Below, one piece after another: positions 11,193-62,146 of a DNA stretch of 64,000 nucleotides. The notes below the pieces were generated by a model. That model was not told where the DNA came from. It made no database searches and saw only the letters and a list, made by a program, of their open reading frames with translations. Both the position numbers and the translations under genes were made by a program. The stretch lies in the NCBI RefSeq assembly GCF_056746865.1, contig NZ_CM163382.1. One strand, written 5' to 3'. The first letter of the stretch is position 1. Every line of letters starts with the position of its first letter.

Positions 11193-11445
11193 CGGGCGAT
11201 CCTCACTAAACCGGGCCGTTTAGCCAACGTTTAAGCTTTTTGAGAAGCACAATGTAATGGCGTGGCCATATTGCTGCAATTCTAGTGTCAAAAAAATGCG
11301 ATGTTGTTAGGAATTAGTTTATAAACAGACTTTTTTGATTACGGTCGCTTCCCGTGTAACAGGGGGAAAACCGTCCAGGAGCAGGGAAAAGGGCAGGAGA
11401 GAGCCGCGTCAGCCGGGTAACAGCTAAAACGCGGCGTTTCGCGGT

Positions 11446-18261: not shown

Positions 18262-18525
<264 letters not shown>

Positions 18526-22865: not shown

Positions 22866-23257
22866 TTCTTGCCTCCAGGGCGCGGTAGCCGCTGCGCCCT
22901 GTCAATTTCCCTTCCTTATTAGCCGCTTACGGAATGTTCTTAAAACATTCACTTTTGCTTATGTTTTAGCTGATATCCCGAGCGGTTTCAAAATTGTGAT
23001 CTATATTTAACAAAGTAATGACATTTCTGACGGCGTTAAATACCGTTCAATGCGTAGATATCAGTATCTAAAGCCGTCGATTGTCATTCTACCGATATTA
23101 ATAACTGATTCAGAGGCTGTAATGGTCGTTATTCATCACCCATCGCTTTTGTGATGGCGACCATTGACTTCTGTAGAGGGTGAAGTCTCTCCCTATTCAG
23201 CAATGCAACCTCGTGTTGCCAGGCTCAAATTACGAGCAAACATACAGGAATAAATCG

Positions 23258-25346: not shown

Positions 25347-26640
<1,294 letters not shown>

Positions 26641-30084: not shown

Positions 30085-30235
30085 GATGCCGGATGCCCCC
30101 AGTAGGCCTGATAAGACGCGTCAGCGTCGCATCAGGCAGTCAGCAGTGCTGCCTGATGCGGCGCGAACGCCTTATCCGGCCTACGGGCGAGTGCCGTGTA
30201 GGCATGATAAGAATCGGTCAGCATCAGGCAATAAC
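30085..30235. repeat. REP/BIME elements between deoC and deoA
   Basis: GTAGGCCTGATAAGACGCGTCAGCGTCGCATCAGGCA and GCCTGATGCGGCGCGAACGCCTTATCCGGCCTAC palindromic units. Confidence 0.8.
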
Positions 30236-33662: not shown

Positions 33663-33694
33663 TTGTGTTTCGCTGAAAGGCGATTGCCTTGTGA

Positions 33695-33725
33695 AGCCGG
33701 AACGGGAGACTGCTCCGGCTTTTTA
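33695..33725 (+). terminator. intrinsic terminator after deoD (AGCCGGA-N12-TCCGGCT followed by T5)
   Basis: Hairpin plus T-run read from sequence. Confidence 0.6.
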
Positions 33726-33845
33726 GTATCTATTCATCAATAGCGACTGATTTATAGATTTACTATTATTTTTCATATGGATAGAAAATAAAATCCATTC
33801 ATGAATCTATTCATTTATGTTCAGCCGTCATCCAGTAAGGGTATA

Positions 33846-34073
33846 TCAGCAACTCTGGTGGACAACCATAAATTCCTGCCATTTTCTTTTGATGTTTGAG
33901 CTAAGCCGTTCCGTCTTTTCGATCCGTTTTAGAGAATTAATCGAGATACCTAACATTTTACTTACTTCAGCAAGCGATAATTTATGCCTGATACGCACGG
34001 CGGCTAGCCAGGATATACCCTGGCTGAACATTAAATTGATAACCTCCCGTTCCTGGTTTTCCAGATCGATCAT
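33846..34073 (-). CDS. small XRE-family helix-turn-helix protein (75 aa), orphan; occupies the deoD-lplA gap
   Basis: ORF-track frame; residues RIRHKLSLAEVSKMLGISINSLKRIEKTER fit the XRE/Cro-type HTH pattern; no partner gene in the 442-bp deoD-lplA gap. Confidence 0.45.
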   Translation of the reverse strand: MIDLENQEREVINLMFSQGISWLAAVRIRHKLSLAEVSKMLGISINSLKRIEKTERLSSNIKRKWQEFMVVHQSC

Positions 34074-34104
34074 ATTTCCTTCCCTGGATATTTTAATGAG
34101 CGAG

Positions 34105-39551: not shown

Positions 39552-39777
39552 CCGTGACGAAACGGCTCAAAGGCGAGGTATAAATTGAGTTTTTTTGATG
39601 AGTTGAAAAACTCTCTGGAAGAGGCTGTTGAGATTAGAAAGAACCTGCACGGGTGACCCGCTACGAAATTGCAGATGCTAAGGCTATTCGTGAGCAACTT
39701 CATACTCCAACCGACCAGTTGCGTAGCCAGAATGCAATCAAATCTGACAGTCCGCTTCGGCGCGCGCTTTGGTGTAT

Positions 39778-39963
39778 TTACCGGAGTAAATCAGCGTGCC
39801 GTGGAAAATTATGCGCAGCGCTTCTGCTGATTTGCGTACCTTCGCTGATGATAAGTCCTGCACTAGCGTGCTGCGCGTAATAGTCCGCCATTATGTCAGT
39901 CGCAACGTCACCCGCGCGGGAACGCGTCATCGGTGGCATTACAATACGGTTTTTTAATGGCAA
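39778..39963 (-). pseudogene. decayed 5' fragment of an old-yellow-enzyme family NADH:flavin oxidoreductase
   Basis: 61-aa frame PLKNRIVMPPMTRSRA...YYAQHASAGLIISEGTQIS resembles the OYE/NemA N-terminal barrel start, then diverges to a stop; only a TTG start, with an in-frame stop just upstream. Confidence 0.5.
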
Positions 39964-40011
39964 CGCATTCAGCGCATATTTAGCAAATTACGTAATGGGT
40001 CCCTTGCGCGG

Positions 40012-40224
40012 TTATTTGTACAGTTCGGCACTCATGGTGACGGTATTGCCCATGCGAGCGCTGGTGATTTTGTATTCAGAGGCGTTTATCTCTTTCGCTT
40101 TCTGCGCAATAACTGCTTCCGCAGAATCCAGTGTTGTACCGGTTGCTGTTACGCTTTGCGCCGATGCGTTAAACGCCGCGACAGAGAAAAGAGAAGCTGT
40201 AAAAATTGCGATGATCGTTTTCAT
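40012..40224 (-). CDS. small secreted DUF1471 (YdgH/BhsA/McbA-family) protein
   Basis: ORF-track frame 40012..40392; start trimmed to ATG 40224 (MKTIIAIFTASLFSVAAFNASAQ, 70 aa); signal peptide and C-terminal TVTMSAELYK as in BhsA-like proteins. Confidence 0.65.
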   Translation of the reverse strand: MKTIIAIFTASLFSVAAFNASAQSVTATGTTLDSAEAVIAQKAKEINASEYKITSARMGNTVTMSAELYK

Positions 40225-40381
40225 GTTTATATTCCAGAGTGTCTTAATTGTTTGGCGTTTATTAACGCGATGGGGATAGAATACGCCTGCTGCCTGATAA
40301 CATAAATGATACAAATGACAATAGACTATTCTGATTTTGTTAATAATCAGACGCCGGACGTTCCGACGCCTGTCGATTGCA

Positions 40382-40798
40382 TCAGGCAACAAAGTTGTCC
40401 TTCAGCGCCTTGAGACCATCCCGATAGATGCCGGTAAACAGCGCTTCGGCCTCTTCGTTCGTCACATTCACCGGGGTGAATTCACCGAACCATTCCACAC
40501 GAGAAACCTGGCTGTCGGCGGTTTCATGAACGGTAATGGTGGAGAGGTAATCCACCACCGGGAACGGTGCCTGAATAATGGAATAGGTATAACTGCGTTG
40601 ACGGTTATCAAACGCTTCCAGACGTTCAACCACAGTGCCGCCGTCAGAGGTTGTCAGCGAACGAACGCGACCGCCTTCTGTCACTACGCTTTTCGGGATG
40701 AACGGCAGCCAGTCTGGCAGCGCATCAAAGCCGCCCATCAATTGCCATACGGCGTCGGCAGAAGCCGGAATTTCGATCGATACAGTTGTTTTAGCCAT
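40382..40798 (-). CDS. SRPBCC-superfamily (polyketide cyclase/dehydrase-like, Bet v1 fold) protein
   Basis: 138-aa ORF; family assignment by overall resemblance, no catalytic motif verified. Confidence 0.6.
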   Translation of the reverse strand: MAKTTVSIEIPASADAVWQLMGGFDALPDWLPFIPKSVVTEGGRVRSLTTSDGGTVVERLEAFDNRQRSYTYSIIQAPFPVVDYLSTITVHETADSQVSRVEWFGEFTPVNVTNEEAEALFTGIYRDGLKALKDNFVA

Positions 40799-40823
40799 GA
40801 TAATTTTCTCTTAATTTATAGGG

Positions 40824-41621
40824 TTACATTGTTAGGGTGTCGACGACGCCGCCATCGACGCGCAGGGCTGCCCCTGTGGTTGCCGAGGAAAGCGGTGACG
40901 CGAGATAAACCGCCAGATTCGCCACTTCTTCCACATCTGCCGCACGCTGGATGATGGAGCTCGGACGCGAGGTTTTAACAAACTCATCGGCCTGTTCACG
41001 CGCACTGCGTCCCGACTGCGCAGCGGCATCCGCCAGCATCTCTTTCAGGCCATCGGTAAAGGTTGGCCCTGGCAGAATGGCGTTGACGGTCACACCGGTC
41101 CCCGCCAGTCGTTTCGCCAGACCATGAGAGACCGCCAGATTCGCGGCTTTGGTGACGCCGTAGTTGATCATGTCGCCAGGGATTGCCACGCCGGATTCGG
41201 ACGAGACAAAGATAATCCGCCCCCAGCCCTGTTCCGTCATGCCTGGCGCATAGTGACGCGCCAGACGAACGCCGGAAAGGACGTTGACGTTATAGAAGTG
41301 CATCCACTCATCATCCGGAACGCTAAAGAAATCTTTATCGTTGAAAATGCCCAGATTATTGACCAGCACATCAGCCGTTGGGACTGCAGCGATCAGCGCA
41401 GTCACGCCGTCTTCGGTGCTGAGATCGGCCACCACGCCGCGCAGTGACGCCGTGGGAGTTTGTGCCGCAATCGCAGCCATGGCGTCATCAACGCCGCTCT
41501 GTTTACGGCCGACGACAACCACCGTTGCGCCTGCTTTTGCCAGTCCGGCGGCGATACCCTGCCCAATGCCGGAGGTTGAGCCGCTGACCACCGCGACTTT
41601 ACCTGTCAGATCCAGTTTCAT
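40824..41621 (-). CDS. short-chain dehydrogenase/reductase (SDR) family oxidoreductase
   Basis: ORF-track frame 40824..41723; start trimmed to ATG 41621 (MKLDLTGKVAVVSGSTSGIGQGIA, 266 aa); TGxxxGIG cofactor motif and YGVTK catalytic YxxxK. Confidence 0.75.
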   Translation of the reverse strand: MKLDLTGKVAVVSGSTSGIGQGIAAGLAKAGATVVVVGRKQSGVDDAMAAIAAQTPTASLRGVVADLSTEDGVTALIAAVPTADVLVNNLGIFNDKDFFSVPDDEWMHFYNVNVLSGVRLARHYAPGMTEQGWGRIIFVSSESGVAIPGDMINYGVTKAANLAVSHGLAKRLAGTGVTVNAILPGPTFTDGLKEMLADAAAQSGRSAREQADEFVKTSRPSSIIQRAADVEEVANLAVYLASPLSSATTGAALRVDGGVVDTLTM

Positions 41622-41640
41622 CGTTTTCTCACCAGGTTGA

Positions 41641-42651
41641 TTAACGGGTCGGCAGCGGAGCGTTTTCCGCAACCAGATTTTGACGGCGCATTTCTGCCCA
41701 GAATTCAGCCGGAACAGGCGCATTCAGTGCAGCCAGATCTTCTGCCATACGGCCAGGACGGCTGGAGCCAGGAATAACCGCCGCAACGGCCGGGTTTGCC
41801 AGCGCGAACTGCAGCGCAGCTGCTTTAACGTTCACATTGAAACGTGTGGCAATGGTGTTAATTTGCGCCACTTTCTGCTGGATGGCCGCAGAAGCTTTCT
41901 GATATTCAAAGTGCTCGCCGCCTGCCAGTACGCCAGAGCTGTACGGACCGCCCACAACAATATCCACGTTCTGTTCCAGTGCTTCTGGCATCAGGCGTTG
42001 CAGCGCACGTTCGTGATCCAGCAGGGAATAACGCCCCGCCAGCAGGAACGCATCCGGCTTCGGTTCGTCCAGCGCCAGCGTCAGTTCGCAAGGTTCGACG
42101 CGATTCACACCCAGTCCCCAGGCTTTAATCACACCTTCGTCACGCAAACGCGTCAGCGCACGAAACGCACCGGTACGGGCTATGTTGAACTGTTCCAGCC
42201 AGCTGTCACCGTAGAAGTCCTGTGCCGGGTCGTGGATCCAGACAATATCCAGACGGTCTGTTTTCAGGCGTTTCAGGCTGTCTTCAATCGAGCGCAGCGT
42301 GGCGTCAGCAGAGTAGTCATTCAGAATTTTGTTTTTCAGGCCGTGTTCGAACAGGCCACCTTTTTCACCGAAATCACGTTTTGCCGGATCTTCCATTTCG
42401 TCCAGCATGATGCGACCGACTTTGCTGCTCAGAACGTATTCATCGCGTGGATACTGAGACAGCGCTTCACCCATGCGGATTTCAGAAAGGCCAGAGCCAT
42501 ACAGCGGCGCGGTATCAAAGTAACGCACGCCCAGGTTCCAGGCTTCGCTCACGGTGGCGTGGGCCTCGTCTTCCGGAATGGCACGGAACATGTTGCCGAG
42601 TGGTGCGCCACCTAAGCCAATTTTGCCGGGAAGTAAATTTTTGATGCTCAT
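41641..42651 (-). CDS. aldo-keto reductase family oxidoreductase
   Basis: 336-aa ORF; AKR-like N-terminus GLGGAPLG...FDTAPLYGSGLSE; GAGGA ribosome-binding site upstream. Confidence 0.75.
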   Translation of the reverse strand: MSIKNLLPGKIGLGGAPLGNMFRAIPEDEAHATVSEAWNLGVRYFDTAPLYGSGLSEIRMGEALSQYPRDEYVLSSKVGRIMLDEMEDPAKRDFGEKGGLFEHGLKNKILNDYSADATLRSIEDSLKRLKTDRLDIVWIHDPAQDFYGDSWLEQFNIARTGAFRALTRLRDEGVIKAWGLGVNRVEPCELTLALDEPKPDAFLLAGRYSLLDHERALQRLMPEALEQNVDIVVGGPYSSGVLAGGEHFEYQKASAAIQQKVAQINTIATRFNVNVKAAALQFALANPAVAAVIPGSSRPGRMAEDLAALNAPVPAEFWAEMRRQNLVAENAPLPTR

Positions 42652-42693
42652 AAGATGTCCTCAATTATTCGGTTTGGGTTAGGGCGTTTTTTT

Positions 42694-42709
42694 GCTATCG
42701 CCCTGTGAC
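42694..42709. promoter_or_regulatory. perfect CRP-consensus-like palindrome TGTGA-N6-TCACA in the divergent promoter between the AKR operon and the LysR gene
   Basis: TGTGACGTGGATCACA read from sequence. Confidence 0.45.
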
Positions 42710-42784
42710 GTGGATCACAATACCTTGCGAGGTTGTGACTTGATAGGACATAATTCGTCTGACTTAAGTCCTTTGAGGTCTAAC

Positions 42785-43672
42785 ATGATTGATTTACGCC
42801 AACTGAAGTACTTCGTGGTGGTCGCAGAAGAAGAGCACGTGGGACGCGCAGCCGAGCGATTACATATCTCGCAATCACCGCTGAGCCGCCAGATTGCACA
42901 ACTGGAAGAACGGCTGGGGCTGACGCTGTTTGAGCGTAATCAGCAGCGCATTCGCCTGACCGCTGATGGACAGACATTCCTTGCCGAAACACGTTCGTTG
43001 CTGACACACGCCAACCGCCTGGAGTCGTTAGGCAAACGCCTGGGACGGGGGGAAGATGGTGGCTTGTGTATTGGCTATATCGAAAACGCCATGCATTCCG
43101 GTGTGCTTTCTACGGCGCTACGTACGTTACGTGTATCGCGTCCGAATGTGCATATCGCACTTTACAGCCAACCACCGGCTACCCAGATTGAAGGCCTGCG
43201 CCAGCGCAGTCTCGATTTTTCTCTGGTCGACACGCCGCCCACCGACAGCGAGCAGGATCTGGAATATATTCAGGTTCTGGATGATCGAATGTTGTTGGCC
43301 TTACCGCAAAATCATCCTCTGGCGCAGGAGGAAAACCTTGTCGCGTCACAACTTGGCGATGAGCAGTGGATTGCGGTGATTCATAACGACGATGCGCATT
43401 CTCGCGATCATTTTGTCGCCGCCTGTGTTAACGCCGGGTTTAATCCTGATATTCGCCTGGAAGCGGGTGAACCCCTCACGGCATTAGGTTTGGTCGCTGC
43501 GGGATTAGGTCTGGCCTTAATTCAACATAGTCTGCGTCATAATGCGCCGGAAGGGGTGGTATTACGTGAATTGCCGTGGATGAATTATTCAACGCAATTA
43601 TGGGCAGCCTGGCATAAAGCCAACCAACGTCCGCTGGTTTCCCATTTCCGCCAGATCCTGCGCGGTGAATAA
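42785..43672 (+). CDS. LysR-family transcriptional regulator
   Basis: ORF-track frame 42692..43672; start trimmed to ATG 42785 (MIDLRQLKYFVVVAEEEHVGRAAERLHISQSPLSRQIAQLEERLG, 295 aa); LysR N-terminal HTH and C-terminal substrate-binding domain. Confidence 0.8.
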   Translation: MIDLRQLKYFVVVAEEEHVGRAAERLHISQSPLSRQIAQLEERLGLTLFERNQQRIRLTADGQTFLAETRSLLTHANRLESLGKRLGRGEDGGLCIGYIENAMHSGVLSTALRTLRVSRPNVHIALYSQPPATQIEGLRQRSLDFSLVDTPPTDSEQDLEYIQVLDDRMLLALPQNHPLAQEENLVASQLGDEQWIAVIHNDDAHSRDHFVAACVNAGFNPDIRLEAGEPLTALGLVAAGLGLALIQHSLRHNAPEGVVLRELPWMNYSTQLWAAWHKANQRPLVSHFRQILRGE

Positions 43673-43677
43673 AACGT

Positions 43678-43702
43678 TAAGCGGGAACCATGAGTTCCCG
43701 CT
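43678..43702 (+). terminator. hairpin AAGCGGGAAC-N5-GTTCCCGCTT after the LysR gene
   Basis: 10-bp perfect stem read from sequence; T-run weak. Confidence 0.4.
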
Positions 43703-43827
43703 TGATTTGAGGTGTCAGTCCGCATCTGAGCTAATACGCTTAAAGAAAATTCTGCCTTTTTCCGGGGACTAATCATTTAACTAATACCGGATGCGATGCT
43801 GGCGCGCCGCACCCGGCATTTTACGCA

Positions 43828-54412: not shown

Positions 54413-55129
54413 TTAATCTTCCAGATCACCACAGAAGCGATAACCTTCACCGTGAATGGTGGCGATGATTTCCGGCGTATCCGGCGTAGATTCGAAATGT
54501 TTACGAATACGGCGGATCGTCACGTCTACAGTACGGTCGTGCGGTTTCAGCTCACGGCCGGTCATTTTCTTCAGCAGTTCAGCACGGGACTGAATTTTGC
54601 CTGGGTTTTCACAGAAGTGAAGCATGGCGCGGAACTCGCTGCGCGGCAGCTTGTACTGCTCGCCATCAGGGCCGATCAACGAACGGCTGTTGATGTCCAG
54701 TTCCCAACCATTGAACTTGTAGCTTTCAACGCTACGACGTTCTTCGCTGACAGTACCCAGATTCATGGTACGGGACAGCAGGTTGCGTGCACGAATAGTC
54801 AGTTCACGTGGGTTGAACGGTTTGGTGATGTAGTCATCTGCACCGATTTCGAGGCCGAGAATTTTATCGACTTCGTTGTCACGGCCAGTCAGGAACATCA
54901 ACGCAACATTCGCCTGCTCGCGCAGTTCACGCGCTAACAGAAGACCGTTCTTACCCGGCAGATTGATATCCATGATCACCAGGTTGATGTCATATTCAGA
55001 GAGGATCTGATGCATTTCCGCGCCATCTGTCGCTTCGAAAACATCATAGCCTTCCGCTTCGAAAATACTTTTCAACGTGTTGCGTGTTACCAACTCGTCT
55101 TCAACGATAAGAATGTGCGGGGTCTGCAT
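54413..55129 (-). CDS. arcA: aerobic respiration control response regulator ArcA
   Basis: 238-aa [33 protein letters not shown]... Confidence 0.95.
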
Positions 55130-55224
55130 GTTTGCTACCTAAATTGCCAACTAAATCGAAACAGGAAGTACAAAAGTCCCTGACCTGCCTGATGCATGCT
55201 GCAAATTAACATGATCGGCGTAAC

Positions 55225-55365
55225 ATGACTAAAGTACGTAATTGCGTTCTTGATGCACTTTCCATCAACGTCAACAACATCATTAGCTTGGTCGTGGGTA
55301 CTTTCCCTCAGGACCCGACAGTGTCAAAAACGGCTGTCATCCTAACCATTTTAACAGCAACATAA
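55225..55365 (+). CDS. yjjY: small protein YjjY (46 aa)
   Basis: ATG 55225 to TAA 55363..55365 reads MTKVRNCVLDALSINVNNIISLVVGTFPQDPTVSKTAVILTILTAT; below the ORF-track length cut-off. Confidence 0.55.
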   Translation: MTKVRNCVLDALSINVNNIISLVVGTFPQDPTVSKTAVILTILTAT

Positions 55366-55764
55366 CAGGCTAAGAGGGGCCGGACACCCAATAAAACTAC
55401 GCTTCGTTGACATATATCAAGTTCAATTGTAGCACGTTAACAGTTTGATGAAATCATCGTATCTAAATGCTAGCTTTCGTCACATTATTTTAATAATCCA
55501 ACTAGTTGCATCATACAACTAATAAACGTGGTGAATCCAATTGTCGAGATTTATTTTTTATAAAATTATCCTAAGTAAACAGAAGGATATGTAGCATTTT
55601 TTAACAATTAAACCGTTAGTACAGTCAGGAAATAGTTTAGCCTTTTTTAAGCTAAGTAAAGGGCTTTTTCTGCGACTTACGTTAAGAATTTGTAAATTCG
55701 CACCGCATAATAAGTTGACAGTGATCACCCTGTTCGCGGTTATTTGGTCAAGAAGAGTGGCAAT

Positions 55765-56451: not shown

Positions 56452-56661
56452 AAAACGCCTTAGTAAGTATTTTTCAGCTTTTCATTCTGACTGCAACGGG
56501 CAATATGTCTCTGTGTGGATTAAAAAAAGAGTGTCTGATAGCAGCTTCTGAACTGGTTACCTGCCGTGAGTAAATTAAAATTTTATTGACTTAGGTCACT
56601 AAATACTTTAACCAATATAGGCATAGCGCACAGACAGATAAAAATTACAGAGTACACAACA

Positions 56662-56730
<69 letters not shown>

Positions 56731-56752
56731 CGCGTACAGGAAACACAGAAAA

Positions 56753-56784
56753 AAGCCCGCACCTGACAGTGCGGGCTTTTTTTT
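56753..56784 (+). terminator. thr attenuator terminator hairpin (AAGCCCGCACCTGACAGTGCGGGCTTTTTTTT)
   Basis: GC-rich stem plus T8 run between thrL and thrA, read from sequence. Confidence 0.9.
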
Positions 56785-56810
56785 CGACCAAAGGTAACGA
56801 GGTAACAACC

Positions 56811-59273
56811 ATGCGAGTGTTGAAGTTCGGCGGTACATCAGTGGCAAATGCAGAACGTTTTCTGCGGGTTGCCGATATTCTGGAAAGCAATGCCAGGCAG
56901 GGGCAGGTGGCCACCGTCCTCTCTGCCCCCGCCAAAATCACCAACCACCTGGTGGCGATGATTGAAAAAACCATTAGCGGCCAGGATGCTTTACCCAATA
57001 TCAGCGATGCCGAACGTATTTTTGCCGAACTTCTGACGGGACTCGCCGCCGCCCAGCCGGGATTCCCGCTGGCGCAACTGAAAACTTTCGTCGACCAGGA
57101 ATTTGCCCAAATAAAACATGTCCTGCATGGCATTAGTTTGTTGGGGCAGTGCCCGGATAGCATCAACGCTGCGCTGATTTGCCGTGGCGAGAAAATGTCG
57201 ATCGCCATTATGGCCGGCGTATTAGAAGCGCGCGGTCACAACGTTACCGTTATCGATCCGGTCGAAAAACTGCTGGCAGTGGGGCATTACCTCGAATCTA
57301 CCGTCGATATTGCTGAGTCCACCCGCCGTATTGCGGCAAGTCGTATTCCGGCTGATCACATGGTGCTGATGGCAGGTTTCACCGCCGGTAATGAAAAAGG
57401 CGAACTGGTGGTGCTTGGACGCAACGGTTCCGACTACTCTGCTGCGGTGCTGGCTGCCTGTTTACGCGCCGATTGTTGCGAGATTTGGACAGACGTTGAC
57501 GGGGTCTATACCTGCGACCCGCGTCAGGTGCCCGATGCGAGGTTGTTGAAGTCGATGTCCTACCAGGAAGCGATGGAGCTTTCCTACTTCGGCGCTAAAG
57601 TTCTTCACCCCCGCACCATTACCCCCATCGCCCAGTTCCAGATCCCTTGCCTGATTAAAAATACCGGAAATCCTCAAGCACCAGGTACGCTCATTGGTGC
57701 CAGCCGTGATGAAGACGAATTACCGGTCAAGGGCATTTCCAATCTGAATAACATGGCAATGTTCAGCGTTTCCGGCCCGGGGATGAAAGGAATGGTTGGC
57801 ATGGCGGCGCGCGTCTTTGCAGCGATGTCACGCGCCCGTATTTCCGTGGTGCTGATTACGCAATCATCTTCCGAATACAGTATCAGTTTCTGCGTTCCAC
57901 AAAGCGACTGTGTGCGAGCTGAACGGGCAATGCAGGAAGAGTTCTACCTGGAACTGAAAGAAGGCTTACTGGAGCCGCTGGCAGTGACGGAACGGCTGGC
58001 CATTATCTCGGTGGTAGGTGATGGTATGCGCACCTTGCGTGGGATCTCGGCGAAATTCTTTGCCGCGCTGGCCCGCGCCAATATCAACATTGTCGCCATT
58101 GCTCAGGGATCTTCTGAACGCTCAATCTCTGTCGTGGTAAATAACGATGATGCGACCACTGGCGTGCGCGTTACTCATCAGATGCTGTTCAATACCGATC
58201 AGGTTATCGAAGTGTTTGTGATTGGCGTCGGTGGCGTTGGCGGTGCGCTGCTGGAGCAACTGAAGCGTCAGCAAAGCTGGCTGAAGAATAAACATATCGA
58301 CTTACGTGTCTGTGGTGTTGCCAACTCGAAGGCTCTGCTCACCAATGTACATGGCCTTAATCTGGAAAACTGGCAGGAAGAACTGGCGCAAGCCAAAGAG
58401 CCGTTTAATCTCGGGCGCTTAATTCGCCTCGTGAAAGAATATCATCTGCTGAACCCGGTCATTGTTGACTGCACCTCCAGCCAGGCAGTGGCGGATCAAT
58501 ATGCCGACTTCCTGCGCGAAGGTTTCCACGTTGTTACGCCGAACAAAAAGGCTAACACCTCGTCGATGGATTACTACCATCTGTTGCGTCATGCGGCGGA
58601 AAAATCGCGGCGTAAATTCCTCTATGACACCAACGTTGGGGCTGGATTACCGGTTATTGAGAACCTGCAAAATCTACTCAATGCAGGTGATGAATTGATG
58701 AAGTTCTCCGGCATTCTTTCTGGTTCGCTTTCTTATATCTTCGGCAAGTTAGACGAAGGCATGAGTTTCTCCGAGGCGACCACGCTGGCGCGGGAAATGG
58801 GTTATACCGAACCGGACCCGCGAGATGATCTTTCTGGTATGGATGTGGCGCGTAAACTATTGATTCTCGCTCGTGAAACGGGACGTGAACTGGAGCTGGC
58901 GGATATTGAAATTGAACCTGTGCTGCCCGCAGAGTTTAACGCCGAGGGTGATGTTGCCGCTTTTATGGCGAATCTGTCACAGCTCGACGATCTCTTTGCC
59001 GCGCGCGTGGCGAAGGCCCGTGATGAAGGAAAAGTTTTGCGCTATGTTGGCAATATTGATGAAGATGGCGTCTGCCGCGTGAAGATTGCTGAAGTGGATG
59101 GCAACGATCCGCTGTTCAAAGTGAAAAACGGCGAAAACGCCCTGGCCTTCTATAGCCACTATTATCAGCCGCTGCCGTTGGTGCTGCGCGGATATGGTGC
59201 GGGCAATGACGTTACAGCTGCCGGTGTTTTTGCCGATCTGCTACGTACCCTCTCATGGAAGTTAGGAGTCTGA
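56811..59273 (+). CDS. thrA: bifunctional aspartokinase I / homoserine dehydrogenase I
   Basis: ORF-track frame 56769..59273; start trimmed to ATG 56811 ([20 protein letters not shown], 820 aa). Confidence 0.95.
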
Positions 59274-62040: not shown

Positions 62041-62146
62041 CTGATGCGACGCTGGCGCGTCTTATCAGGCCTACGTTAATTCTGCAATATATTGAATCTG
62101 CATGCTTTTGTAGGCCGGATAAGGCGTTCACGCCGCATCCGGCATT
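62041..62146. repeat. REP element pair (BIME) between yaaX and yaaA
   Basis: GCCTGATGCGACGCTGGCGCGTCTTATCAGGCCTAC and GTAGGCCGGATAAGGCGTTCACGCCGCATCCGGCA. Confidence 0.85.

Follow-up and report, generated by a model that had tools for sequence, protein, structure and literature searches.

Conservation of the yjjY reading frame in Enterobacteriaceae probably reflects nucleotide constraint on the arcA promoter and 5′ leader of the opposite strand

The arcA–thrL interval and its short open reading frames

The window, i.e. the whole 64000-nt stretch of DNA analysed here, is part of an E. coli chromosome and runs across the point from which numbering conventionally starts. Compared with E. coli NZ_CP071073.1 (603684–667683), it has only 4 differences in 64000 positions, and its creB–yjtD stretch displays 98.7% identity with K-12 in an ungapped comparison. 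The genes lie in the order creD, arcA (minus strand), yjjY (plus strand), yjtD (plus strand), thrL and thrABC, and the 1.7 kb arcA–thrL stretch was present in 5424 of 5426 complete E. coli genomes. From a manual reading of the sequence, the initial annotation had placed two short ORFs (open reading frames) in this region, namely yjjY in the arcA–yjtD gap and the thr leader peptide gene thrL, and both are borne out by the ORF list and by RefSeq. The yjjY frame runs from an ATG to a TAA codon and encodes 46 amino acids (MTKVRNCVLDALSINVNNIISLVVGTFPQDPTVSKTAVILTILTAT), thrL runs from an ATG to a TGA codon and encodes 21 amino acids, the annotation of NZ_CP071073.1 has both at identical co-ordinates, and the gene names agree with RefSeq and with the K-12 annotation, where yjjY is b4402. 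Both are real, long-annotated and already known features of E. coli, and were concealed merely by the 60-amino-acid display cut-off of the ORF track. Recovery of the short ORFs by eye was incomplete in one respect, as ytjE, a 17-amino-acid entry of the curated K-12 annotation, lies in the same interval and had been overlooked. The features discussed in the present study are collected in Table 1.

The initial annotation had also named three gaps, 11193..11445, 22866..23257 and 56452..56664, as places where further small proteins or sRNAs might lie, while stating that none could be identified convincingly. These are the opgB–yjjA, prfC–osmY and yjtD–thrL intergenic regions respectively, with co-ordinates that match the gene boundaries in NZ_CP071073.1, and the caution was justified: the three gaps hold no feature in the curated K-12 annotation and gave zero Rfam matches, and the promoter and terminator scan that had been proposed as a check, once run, returned no sites within them. 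Over the scanned regions, the counts of promoter-like and terminator-like sites were close to the means obtained with shuffled sequences.

Table 1 Co-ordinates in the window of the genes, motifs and predicted structures considered
Feature	Position	Strand	Basis or remark
arcA coding sequence (response regulator ArcA)	54413..55129	-	RefSeq; served as coding control
Conserved block: arcA promoters and 5′ leader, enclosing all of yjjY (plus strand)	55130..55445	-	Eight-genus alignment
Candidate sigma-70 promoter TTGCCA-19-TACAAA, yjjY-sense/arcA-antisense	55144..55174	+	Shimada et al. 2014; located in the window
Variable-sequence hairpin in arcA leader (predicted), immediately before the ATG of yjjY (opposite strand)	55187..55219	-	RNAalifold helix
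yjjY ORF, ‘protein YjjY’ (b4402)	55225..55365	+	ORF list, RefSeq, NCBIfam NF052365; K-12 4640402..4640542
Inverted repeat UUGAUG-N7-CAUCAA inside yjjY; candidate arcA-sense hairpin or protein-binding palindrome	55250..55268	-	Fold and alignment
T/C run ACTTTCCC, site of +1 insertions that shift the yjjY frame	55301..55307	+	Alignment
Second extended −10-like element TGTTAAAAT, putative	55348..55356	-	Motif position
Direct repeat TGTTA-N6-TGTTA, ArcA-box-like, predicted	55352..55367	-	Overlaps yjjY codons 43–46 and stop
FNR-type palindrome TTGAC-ATAT-ATCAA (TTGACATATATCAA), predicted	55407..55420	.	Motif position
Extended −10-like element TGCTACAAT, putative	55426..55434	-	Adjoins FNR palindrome
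ytjE (b4824), 17 amino acids, TTG start	55541..55594	+	K-12 4640718..4640771 maps without indels
thrL, thr operon leader peptide	56665..56730	+	21 amino acids, 8 Thr and 4 Ile; RefSeq, Pfam, NCBIfam
Attenuator RNA of the thr leader, with the terminator hairpin GCCCGCAC...GTGCGGGC followed by a U-run	56666..56785	+	Rfam RF00506

The thrL attenuator

The thrL gene certainly encodes the leader peptide of the classic thr attenuator. In thr attenuation, a ribosome stalled at threonine and isoleucine codons decides whether the terminator hairpin in front of thrA forms, and classical work on E. coli K-12 established that read-through depends on how much charged tRNA-Thr and tRNA-Ile is available. The window holds the same system, with a full-length covariance-model match, a Thr/Ile-rich ORF of 21 codons, a terminator hairpin followed by a U-run, and a site directly upstream of thrABC. 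The Rfam model RF00506 (Thr_leader) matched over its full length, terminator stem included, with a score of 121 bits (gathering threshold 55) and an E-value of 8e-24, which is far above chance expectation. The peptide itself scored 38.4 against Pfam PF08254 (Leader_Thr; cut-off 25) and, in NCBIfam, 48.6 against NF007329 (cut-off 27) and 34.9 against TIGR02077 (cut-off 22.95). The terminator stem and U-run occupy approx. 56749..56785 and end 25 nt before the thrA start at 56811, with thrB and thrC following; our pattern scan recovered the same inverted repeat as the Rfam terminator stem, and a ‘Thr leader region’ is annotated at this site in RefSeq. The thrL peptide of the window is one that we take to be the K-12 sequence. 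In one other E. coli assembly, a thrL variant of 27 residues was observed.

Family membership and chance expectation of the yjjY frame

The yjjY product matched the NCBIfam ‘YjjY’ equivalog model NF052365 with 96.5 bits (cut-off 70), residues 2–46 aligning to profile positions 1–45, and a Pfam search of the same sequence gave no match. ORFs with 83–100% identity to yjjY are annotated in Escherichia, Salmonella, Klebsiella, Raoultella, Enterobacter and Siccibacter, and the arcA–yjjY–yjtD order was conserved in all Enterobacteriaceae examined, with yjjY approx. 95 nt from the arcA start. As a bare ORF, however, yjjY is no more than chance yields, since dinucleotide-preserving shuffling of the 635-nt arcA–yjtD spacer produced an ATG-initiated frame of at least 46 codons 51% of the time, and shuffling of its 316-nt conserved part 26% of the time. 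The predicted duplex of the yjjY start region with the anti-Shine–Dalgarno sequence (−1.7 kcal/mol) was the weakest among seven genes, although those of thrL (−2.4 kcal/mol) and arcA (−3.7 kcal/mol) were also weak.

Substitution pattern and extent of conservation

Two samples of the locus were compared. The arcA-to-yjtD region was first aligned from eight genera. Metagenome contigs were then scanned with the core formed by the FNR box and the extended −10 element (55407..55437), which lies beyond yjjY, and this yielded 73 loci with a complete arcA gene and 56 distinct leaders; counts relating to the reading frame refer to the 47 distinct leaders, reference genomes included, that were at least 85% identical with that of E. 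coli. In addition, genome contigs were searched with the ArcA protein, and among the matches listed the only true arcA loci were those of Citrobacter, Photorhabdus, Vibrio, Shewanella and Haemophilus, the rest being generic OmpR-family regulators; an exact look-up of E. coli ArcA returned only loci with an E. coli-like gene order and added no diversity.

Across the eight genera, variable columns at codon positions 1, 2 and 3 numbered 22, 3 and 170 in arcA (pS 0.51, pN/pS 0.026) and 107, 59 and 213 in yjtD (pS 0.72, pN/pS 0.225), compared with 9, 7 and 4 in yjjY (pS 0.055, pN/pS 0.73). These data clearly show that synonymous divergence in yjjY is approx. 10-fold below that in the flanking genes. 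The third-position excess and codon periodicity that we sought in yjjY were absent both from the eight genera and from the intact yjjY ORFs of the larger metagenome sample, in which 11, 10 and 6 columns varied at the three codon positions, although tests of pN/pS and periodicity are weak when all positions are nucleotide-constrained and just 27–30 columns vary. Overlapping protein-level selection in the Escherichia–Salmonella–Klebsiella group is accordingly possible, because total nucleotide constraint leaves such tests little power.

The conservation is not confined to the frame. The arcA start codon is preceded by approx. 315 nt of near-invariant DNA, comprising the 95-nt spacer, all of yjjY and approx. 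80 nt past its stop codon, and ordinary divergence sets in beyond approx. 55445. Conservation passes both ends of yjjY without a break, except for a short variable patch (approx. 55372..55385) after the stop codon. In the 47 leaders, variable columns made up a fraction of 0.28 of the spacer and 0.21 of yjjY, rising to 0.54 after the stop codon, mostly within the patch, and to 0.87 beyond 55438.

Breakage of the yjjY frame across lineages

A yjjY frame of 46 or 48 codons was kept in 38 of the 47 leaders, several of them with GTG starts, and most close lineages retain either ATG or GTG; in Salmonella, a 6-nt tandem duplication leaves the frame intact. In eight leaders, a +1 insertion at the T/C run near codon 27 leaves the N-terminal 27 residues intact and rewrites the C-terminal 19, with the downstream DNA conserved base for base, and in one further leader the start codon is replaced by AAG. 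Exact look-ups of the adjacent YjtD protein assigned the frameshifted contigs to Kluyvera intermedia, K. georgiana, Cronobacter dublinensis, Buttiauxella (three contigs), a Cedecea/Dryocola-like lineage and Enterobacter, the last being a single metagenome contig with the change in a homopolymer run, which could be an assembly error. The Buttiauxella contigs carry a second indel. As the inserted sequences differ between groups (TACTCTTCCC, TACTTTTCCC and TTTCCCC), there must have been at least three such events.

At greater distances the ORF is lost altogether. Serratia fonticola has ACG at the position of the yjjY start, S. odorifera has a stub of 20 codons, and Pantoea and Photorhabdus have no yjjY ORF, yet blocks of the DNA persist in Serratia, Pantoea and Photorhabdus, namely GTACGTAA, TTGATGCAC..ATCAACGTCAACAA, ATCCTAACC..TTAACAGCAA.ATAACAG and the promoter core. 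The frame and its start codon were thus not maintained wherever the yjjY DNA is kept. As a null model, we followed the remaining ORFs of 12 or more codons in the block, on either strand, and found them intact in 27–45 of the 47 leaders, with one exception that was intact in eight. Arbitrary ORFs of the block therefore survive as often as yjjY does, and the low substitution rate alone predicts ORF survival. The suggestion, implicit in the initial annotation, that yjjY is a small protein is left unsupported, as its substitution pattern is that of constrained non-coding DNA and several genera have retained the DNA with the frame disrupted.

The arcA control region

The block upstream of arcA, read on the minus strand, contains several recognizable elements. 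The FNR consensus is TTGAT-N4-ATCAA, and TTGACATATATCAA matches it at nine of ten positions; this predicted FNR palindrome is conserved in Photorhabdus and in Vibrio (TTGATATAAATCAA). The putative extended −10 element beside it, TGCTACAAT, is invariant in Enterobacterales and reads TGTTACATT in Vibrio, its invariance within the metagenome set being by construction, as it was part of the pattern with which the loci were fetched. The predicted ArcA-box-like repeat is kept across Enterobacterales, including Serratia, Pantoea and Photorhabdus, where the yjjY ORF has been lost. Sites for phosphorylated ArcA are said to consist of direct repeats 11 bp apart, the ArcA consensus and this architecture reportedly having been described by Park and co-workers in 2013 and by Park and Kiley in 2014. 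Compan and Touati are said to have mapped, in 1994, arcA start sites upstream of yjjY, so that the region would lie in the arcA mRNA.

Independently, Reg-Seq assigns to the arcA promoter an FNR site as well as binding of CpxR (PMC7567609), and a comparative study has arcA under the control of Fnr and of its own product (PMC1805755). Placing the FNR box by eye relative to the candidate −10 elements, we found no fit to the classical −41.5 arrangement, and have therefore given the box no specific promoter; any allotment of an individual motif to a particular arcA promoter would be provisional. The locus resembles an FNR- and ArcA-controlled promoter in having the FNR palindrome and the TGTTA-N6-TGTTA repeat upstream of arcA, with the FNR box and the extended −10 element kept as far as Vibrio, but the extreme conservation of the approx. 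250-nt transcribed leader in Enterobacteriaceae exceeds what these sites explain.

Predicted RNA structure in the leader was examined with the same sequences. The inverted repeat inside yjjY displayed one G–C to A–U double change in 13 distant sequences, those of the Pantoea type among them (TTGATA...TATCAA). At the RNAalifold hairpin just upstream of the yjjY start, the Serratia and Pantoea sequences differ yet would also form a hairpin, and 96% of its pairs were canonical in the arcA sense compared with 83% in the yjjY sense, with covariation that was not clearly above controls. Taken over all predicted helices of the block, the corresponding values were 91 and 78%. The arcA-sense value of 91% compares with 88% in shuffles, none of 300 of which reached it, whereas in 34 of these 300 the number of pairs with double changes was at least the observed 16, and the slid controls gave 9–14. 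RNA structure in the arcA leader is thus no more than suggestive, because covariation is not clearly above that of the controls and the single-sequence fold is unremarkable. A single stable leader structure was rejected (minimum free energy −70.5 kcal/mol, z = −0.75 compared with shuffles), and we do not claim a structured RNA family, as the RNAalifold covariation was not clearly above slid and shuffled controls. Rfam gave no match in the arcA–yjtD spacer at gathering and E-value thresholds, and the sRNA literature examined contained nothing on the arcA leader.

Transcription of both strands and the ytjE comparison

According to Shimada et al. (2014), RNA polymerase holoenzyme binds the arcA/yjjY spacer, and the promoter TTGCCA-19-TACAAA is named there (PMC3946193); we located this candidate upstream of yjjY on the plus strand. 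A cluster of RNase III-dependent dsRNA captured with p19, S-383, spans the full yjjY coding sequence and was also found by Lybecker et al. (PMC7373196). Converted from U00096.2 numbering, S-383 corresponds to approx. 55170..55591 of the window. The presence of dsRNA over the whole yjjY coding sequence implies that the yjjY region is transcribed within the arcA mRNA. Given a plus-strand promoter candidate and a transcript, translation of yjjY is possible. In the literature surveyed, as far as its accessible text goes, there was no report of YjjY translation in the form of footprints, tagged protein or peptides; a ribosome-profiling tool applied to Salmonella called a small ORF upstream of arcA on the strand opposite yjjY; and a term search of the supplement of Stringer et al. 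returned neither yjjY nor its K-12 start co-ordinate.

The neighbouring ytjE provides a useful comparison. It is supported by start- and stop-codon ribosome footprints and by Western blotting (Stringer et al. 2021, bioRxiv 10.1101/2021.07.02.450978), and in the eight-genus alignment its sequence was unconserved outside E. coli. It belongs with the small ORFs detected by Ribo-RET and Ribo-Api, which are translated but not conserved, and lies in the same intergenic region as yjjY, showing that short ORFs of the arcA–yjtD region can be translated without conservation. The yjjY ORF is the opposite of ytjE, with a highly conserved sequence and a non-coding pattern.

Discussion

The published genetics of yjjY point to arcA. 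In one study, transposon insertions in yjjY were enriched in serial transfer, mainly in the arcA-sense orientation, and deletion of yjjY leaving an FRT scar increased fitness, which its authors attribute to altered arcA regulation and not to the loss of yjjY (PMC12956098). In a chloramphenicol-survival screen, disruption of yjjY resembled that of arcA and arcB (PMC1929150), and a Dub-seq study describes an arcA phenotype that needed fragments also bearing yjjY, the authors suspecting the intergenic region (PMC6338753). Taken with the non-coding substitution pattern, these phenotypes indicate that the conserved unit is the minus-strand arcA promoter and 5′ leader.

We therefore consider it probable that the YjjY ‘family’ reflects nucleotide constraint on the arcA promoter and leader of the opposite strand. 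As we envisage it, yjjY would be an open frame lying antisense within the approx. 315-nt arcA promoter and 5′ leader, and selection would preserve the nucleotides of this control region, i.e. the FNR box, the ArcA-type repeat, the promoter elements and the leader hairpins, so that the near-invariance of YjjY most likely arises as a side effect of that constraint. Should YjjY be translated, selection probably does not act on it at the protein level. On this evidence the motifs presumably bind FNR and ArcA, the hairpins would matter to the leader, and a YjjY protein would be functionless. The NF052365 family is matched above its cut-off and in the same synteny, but several genera have frameshifted or start-less versions, and the family appears, from sequence comparison, to owe its definition to the conserved nucleotides of the arcA leader, with no detectable protein-level selection. 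The main limits on this reading of yjjY are the small number of substitutions and possible overlapping selection in the Escherichia–Klebsiella group.

Two other readings of the locus were weighed against the data. YjjY might be a genuine small, possibly membrane-associated protein of the Enterobacteriaceae, encoded by dual-use DNA in which the constraint on the arcA leader hides selection on the protein. The 96.5-bit family match and the annotated ORFs of 83–100% identity in six genera would fit such a protein, as would the in-frame Salmonella duplication, the ATG or GTG starts of most lineages, the 38 intact frames among 47, and both the RNA polymerase binding with its promoter candidate upstream of yjjY and the plus-strand transcript that the dsRNA implies. 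We nevertheless regard it as unlikely, as the variable columns lack a third-position excess (11/10/6), pN/pS is 0.73 and synonymous sites evolve approx. 10 times more slowly than those of the neighbours; moreover, +1 frameshifts have been fixed in whole genera that retained the DNA, other lineages have lost the start codon, conservation is indifferent to the ORF boundaries, arbitrary ORFs survive equally well, the Shine–Dalgarno signal is weak (as are those of thrL and arcA), there is no Pfam family, and the genetic phenotypes are ascribed to arcA. Alternatively, the plus-strand transcript could be a non-coding cis-antisense RNA that tunes ArcA by pairing with the arcA leader and being cut by RNase III, and/or by promoter interference, the ORF being incidental. 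The S-383 cluster over the full yjjY coding sequence, the divergent promoter candidate and the fact that the selected insertions are those oriented with arcA are in keeping with this. On the other hand, the accessible text of the experiments surveyed gives no effect of an antisense transcript on arcA expression, dsRNA from overlapping divergent transcripts is common in E. coli and often has no known function according to the dsRNA study (PMC7373196), and the helices pair better in the arcA sense (91%) than in the yjjY sense (78%), which fits selection on the arcA leader and not on an antisense RNA; we find this reading quite improbable. An antisense RNA of this kind would be compatible with constraint on the arcA control region, being then one of its mechanisms.

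Constraint on the arcA promoter and leader thus being the reading that we prefer, the leader itself deserves comment. It is among the most constrained non-coding stretches of the neighbourhood, and a candidate upstream ORF in the arcA sense (55206..55283) was intact in 45 of 47 lineages. We suggest, tentatively and with more doubt than confidence, that the approx. 250–300-nt arcA leader might be an undescribed module for post-transcriptional control of ArcA, with hairpins, a possible upstream ORF and an antisense partner, the YjjY family then being an annotation artefact.

Since the YjjY family can be explained by nucleotide conservation, ‘yjjY’ mutant phenotypes in Keio, TraDIS and Dub-seq screens should be read as cis-effects on arcA. 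The YjjY family (NF052365) has been spread through thousands of genomes, yet can be explained by nucleotide conservation of regulatory DNA that serves a global regulator encoded by the opposite strand, and as such it calls for caution in annotation. In addition, the unusual constraint on the arcA leader justifies a focused study of how ArcA synthesis may be controlled after the start of transcription.

Small ORFs around arcA and yjtD

On the strand of arcA, and opposite the annotated 46-aa ORF yjjY, the arcA leader contains an ATG-initiated ORF, which is intact in 45 of the 47 close lineages (distinct arcA leaders at least 85% identical to that of E. coli) and thus in more of them than yjjY. 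Its variable columns are distributed 6/7/4 by codon position, i.e. with no codon periodicity, and in Salmonella a 6-nt duplication lies immediately upstream of its start. Because a ribosome-profiling study in Salmonella called a sORF upstream of arcA and opposite yjjY, this reading frame could be a regulatory upstream ORF. Directly past the yjjY stop, a short patch (55372..55385) varies freely within an otherwise invariant arcA upstream block, and this may represent either a stretch in which transcription starts or a spacer separating regulatory elements.

Another small ORF, ytjE (b4824 in K-12), is supported at the level of translation by Ribo-RET/Ribo-Api footprints and Western blotting (Stringer et al. 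2021, bioRxiv 10.1101/2021.07.02.450978). It is too short even for an ORF list with a 20-aa minimum, is absent from the RefSeq automatic annotation of the near-identical E. coli record NZ_CP071073.1 and showed no conservation beyond E. coli. For yjtD, an upstream extension of the open frame offers an alternative start, and alignment across genera supports the annotated ATG, because conservation begins there.

Small ORFs, alternative starts and Rfam matches in the window
Feature	Position	Strand	Description	Source
ORF in arcA leader	55206..55283	- (arcA strand)	ATG start, 25 codons, MMLLTLMESASRTQLRTLVMLRRSC	
ytjE	55541..55594	+	17 aa, TTG start	curated K-12 annotation
yjtD, alternative start	55744	+	TTG, 235 aa	upstream extension of open frame
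yjtD, annotated start	55765	+	ATG, 228 aa	annotation
naRNA4 (CssrE)	18292..18485	+	two copies upstream of leuQPV tRNA operon, opposite strand to operon	Rfam
naRNA4 (CssrE)	26122..26602	+	five tandem copies, period ~100 nt, between yjjV and yjjW	Rfam
naRNA4 (CssrE)	30105..30181	-	one copy between deoC and deoA	Rfam
ES036 (CssrF) sRNA	62067..62109	-	yaaX–yaaA spacer	Rfam, borderline

Leader peptide position in a second assembly

In another E. coli assembly (L093), the ORF called at the thrL position (882..965) encodes 27 residues, compared with 21 in the thrL of other loci, with which it shares its end coordinate. No Leader_Thr match is recorded for this ORF, which could represent the Thr/Ile-codon leader in a form of different length.

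Rfam matches and differences from K-12

The naRNA4 matches in the window are presumably REP/BIME-type repeat arrays, and the ES036 match, at 38.7 bits, lies just above the gathering score of 37.6. Between nadR and ettA lies an insertion of approximately 4.3 kb (39552..43827) that K-12 does not have, carrying pseudogene fragments (NadS-family and hypothetical) together with genes for DUF1471, SRPBCC, SDR oxidoreductase and aldo/keto reductase proteins and a LysR-family regulator. Within the deoD–lplA interval (33663..34104), which in K-12 contains the HipH (YjjJ) kinase-toxin gene, solely a frameshifted helix-turn-helix pseudogene (33811..34073) remains. At 1..3278, the 4-hydroxyphenylacetate genes hpaE, hpaG and hpaR adjoin tsr where K-12 has btsT, and the window therefore belongs to a non-K-12 lineage.
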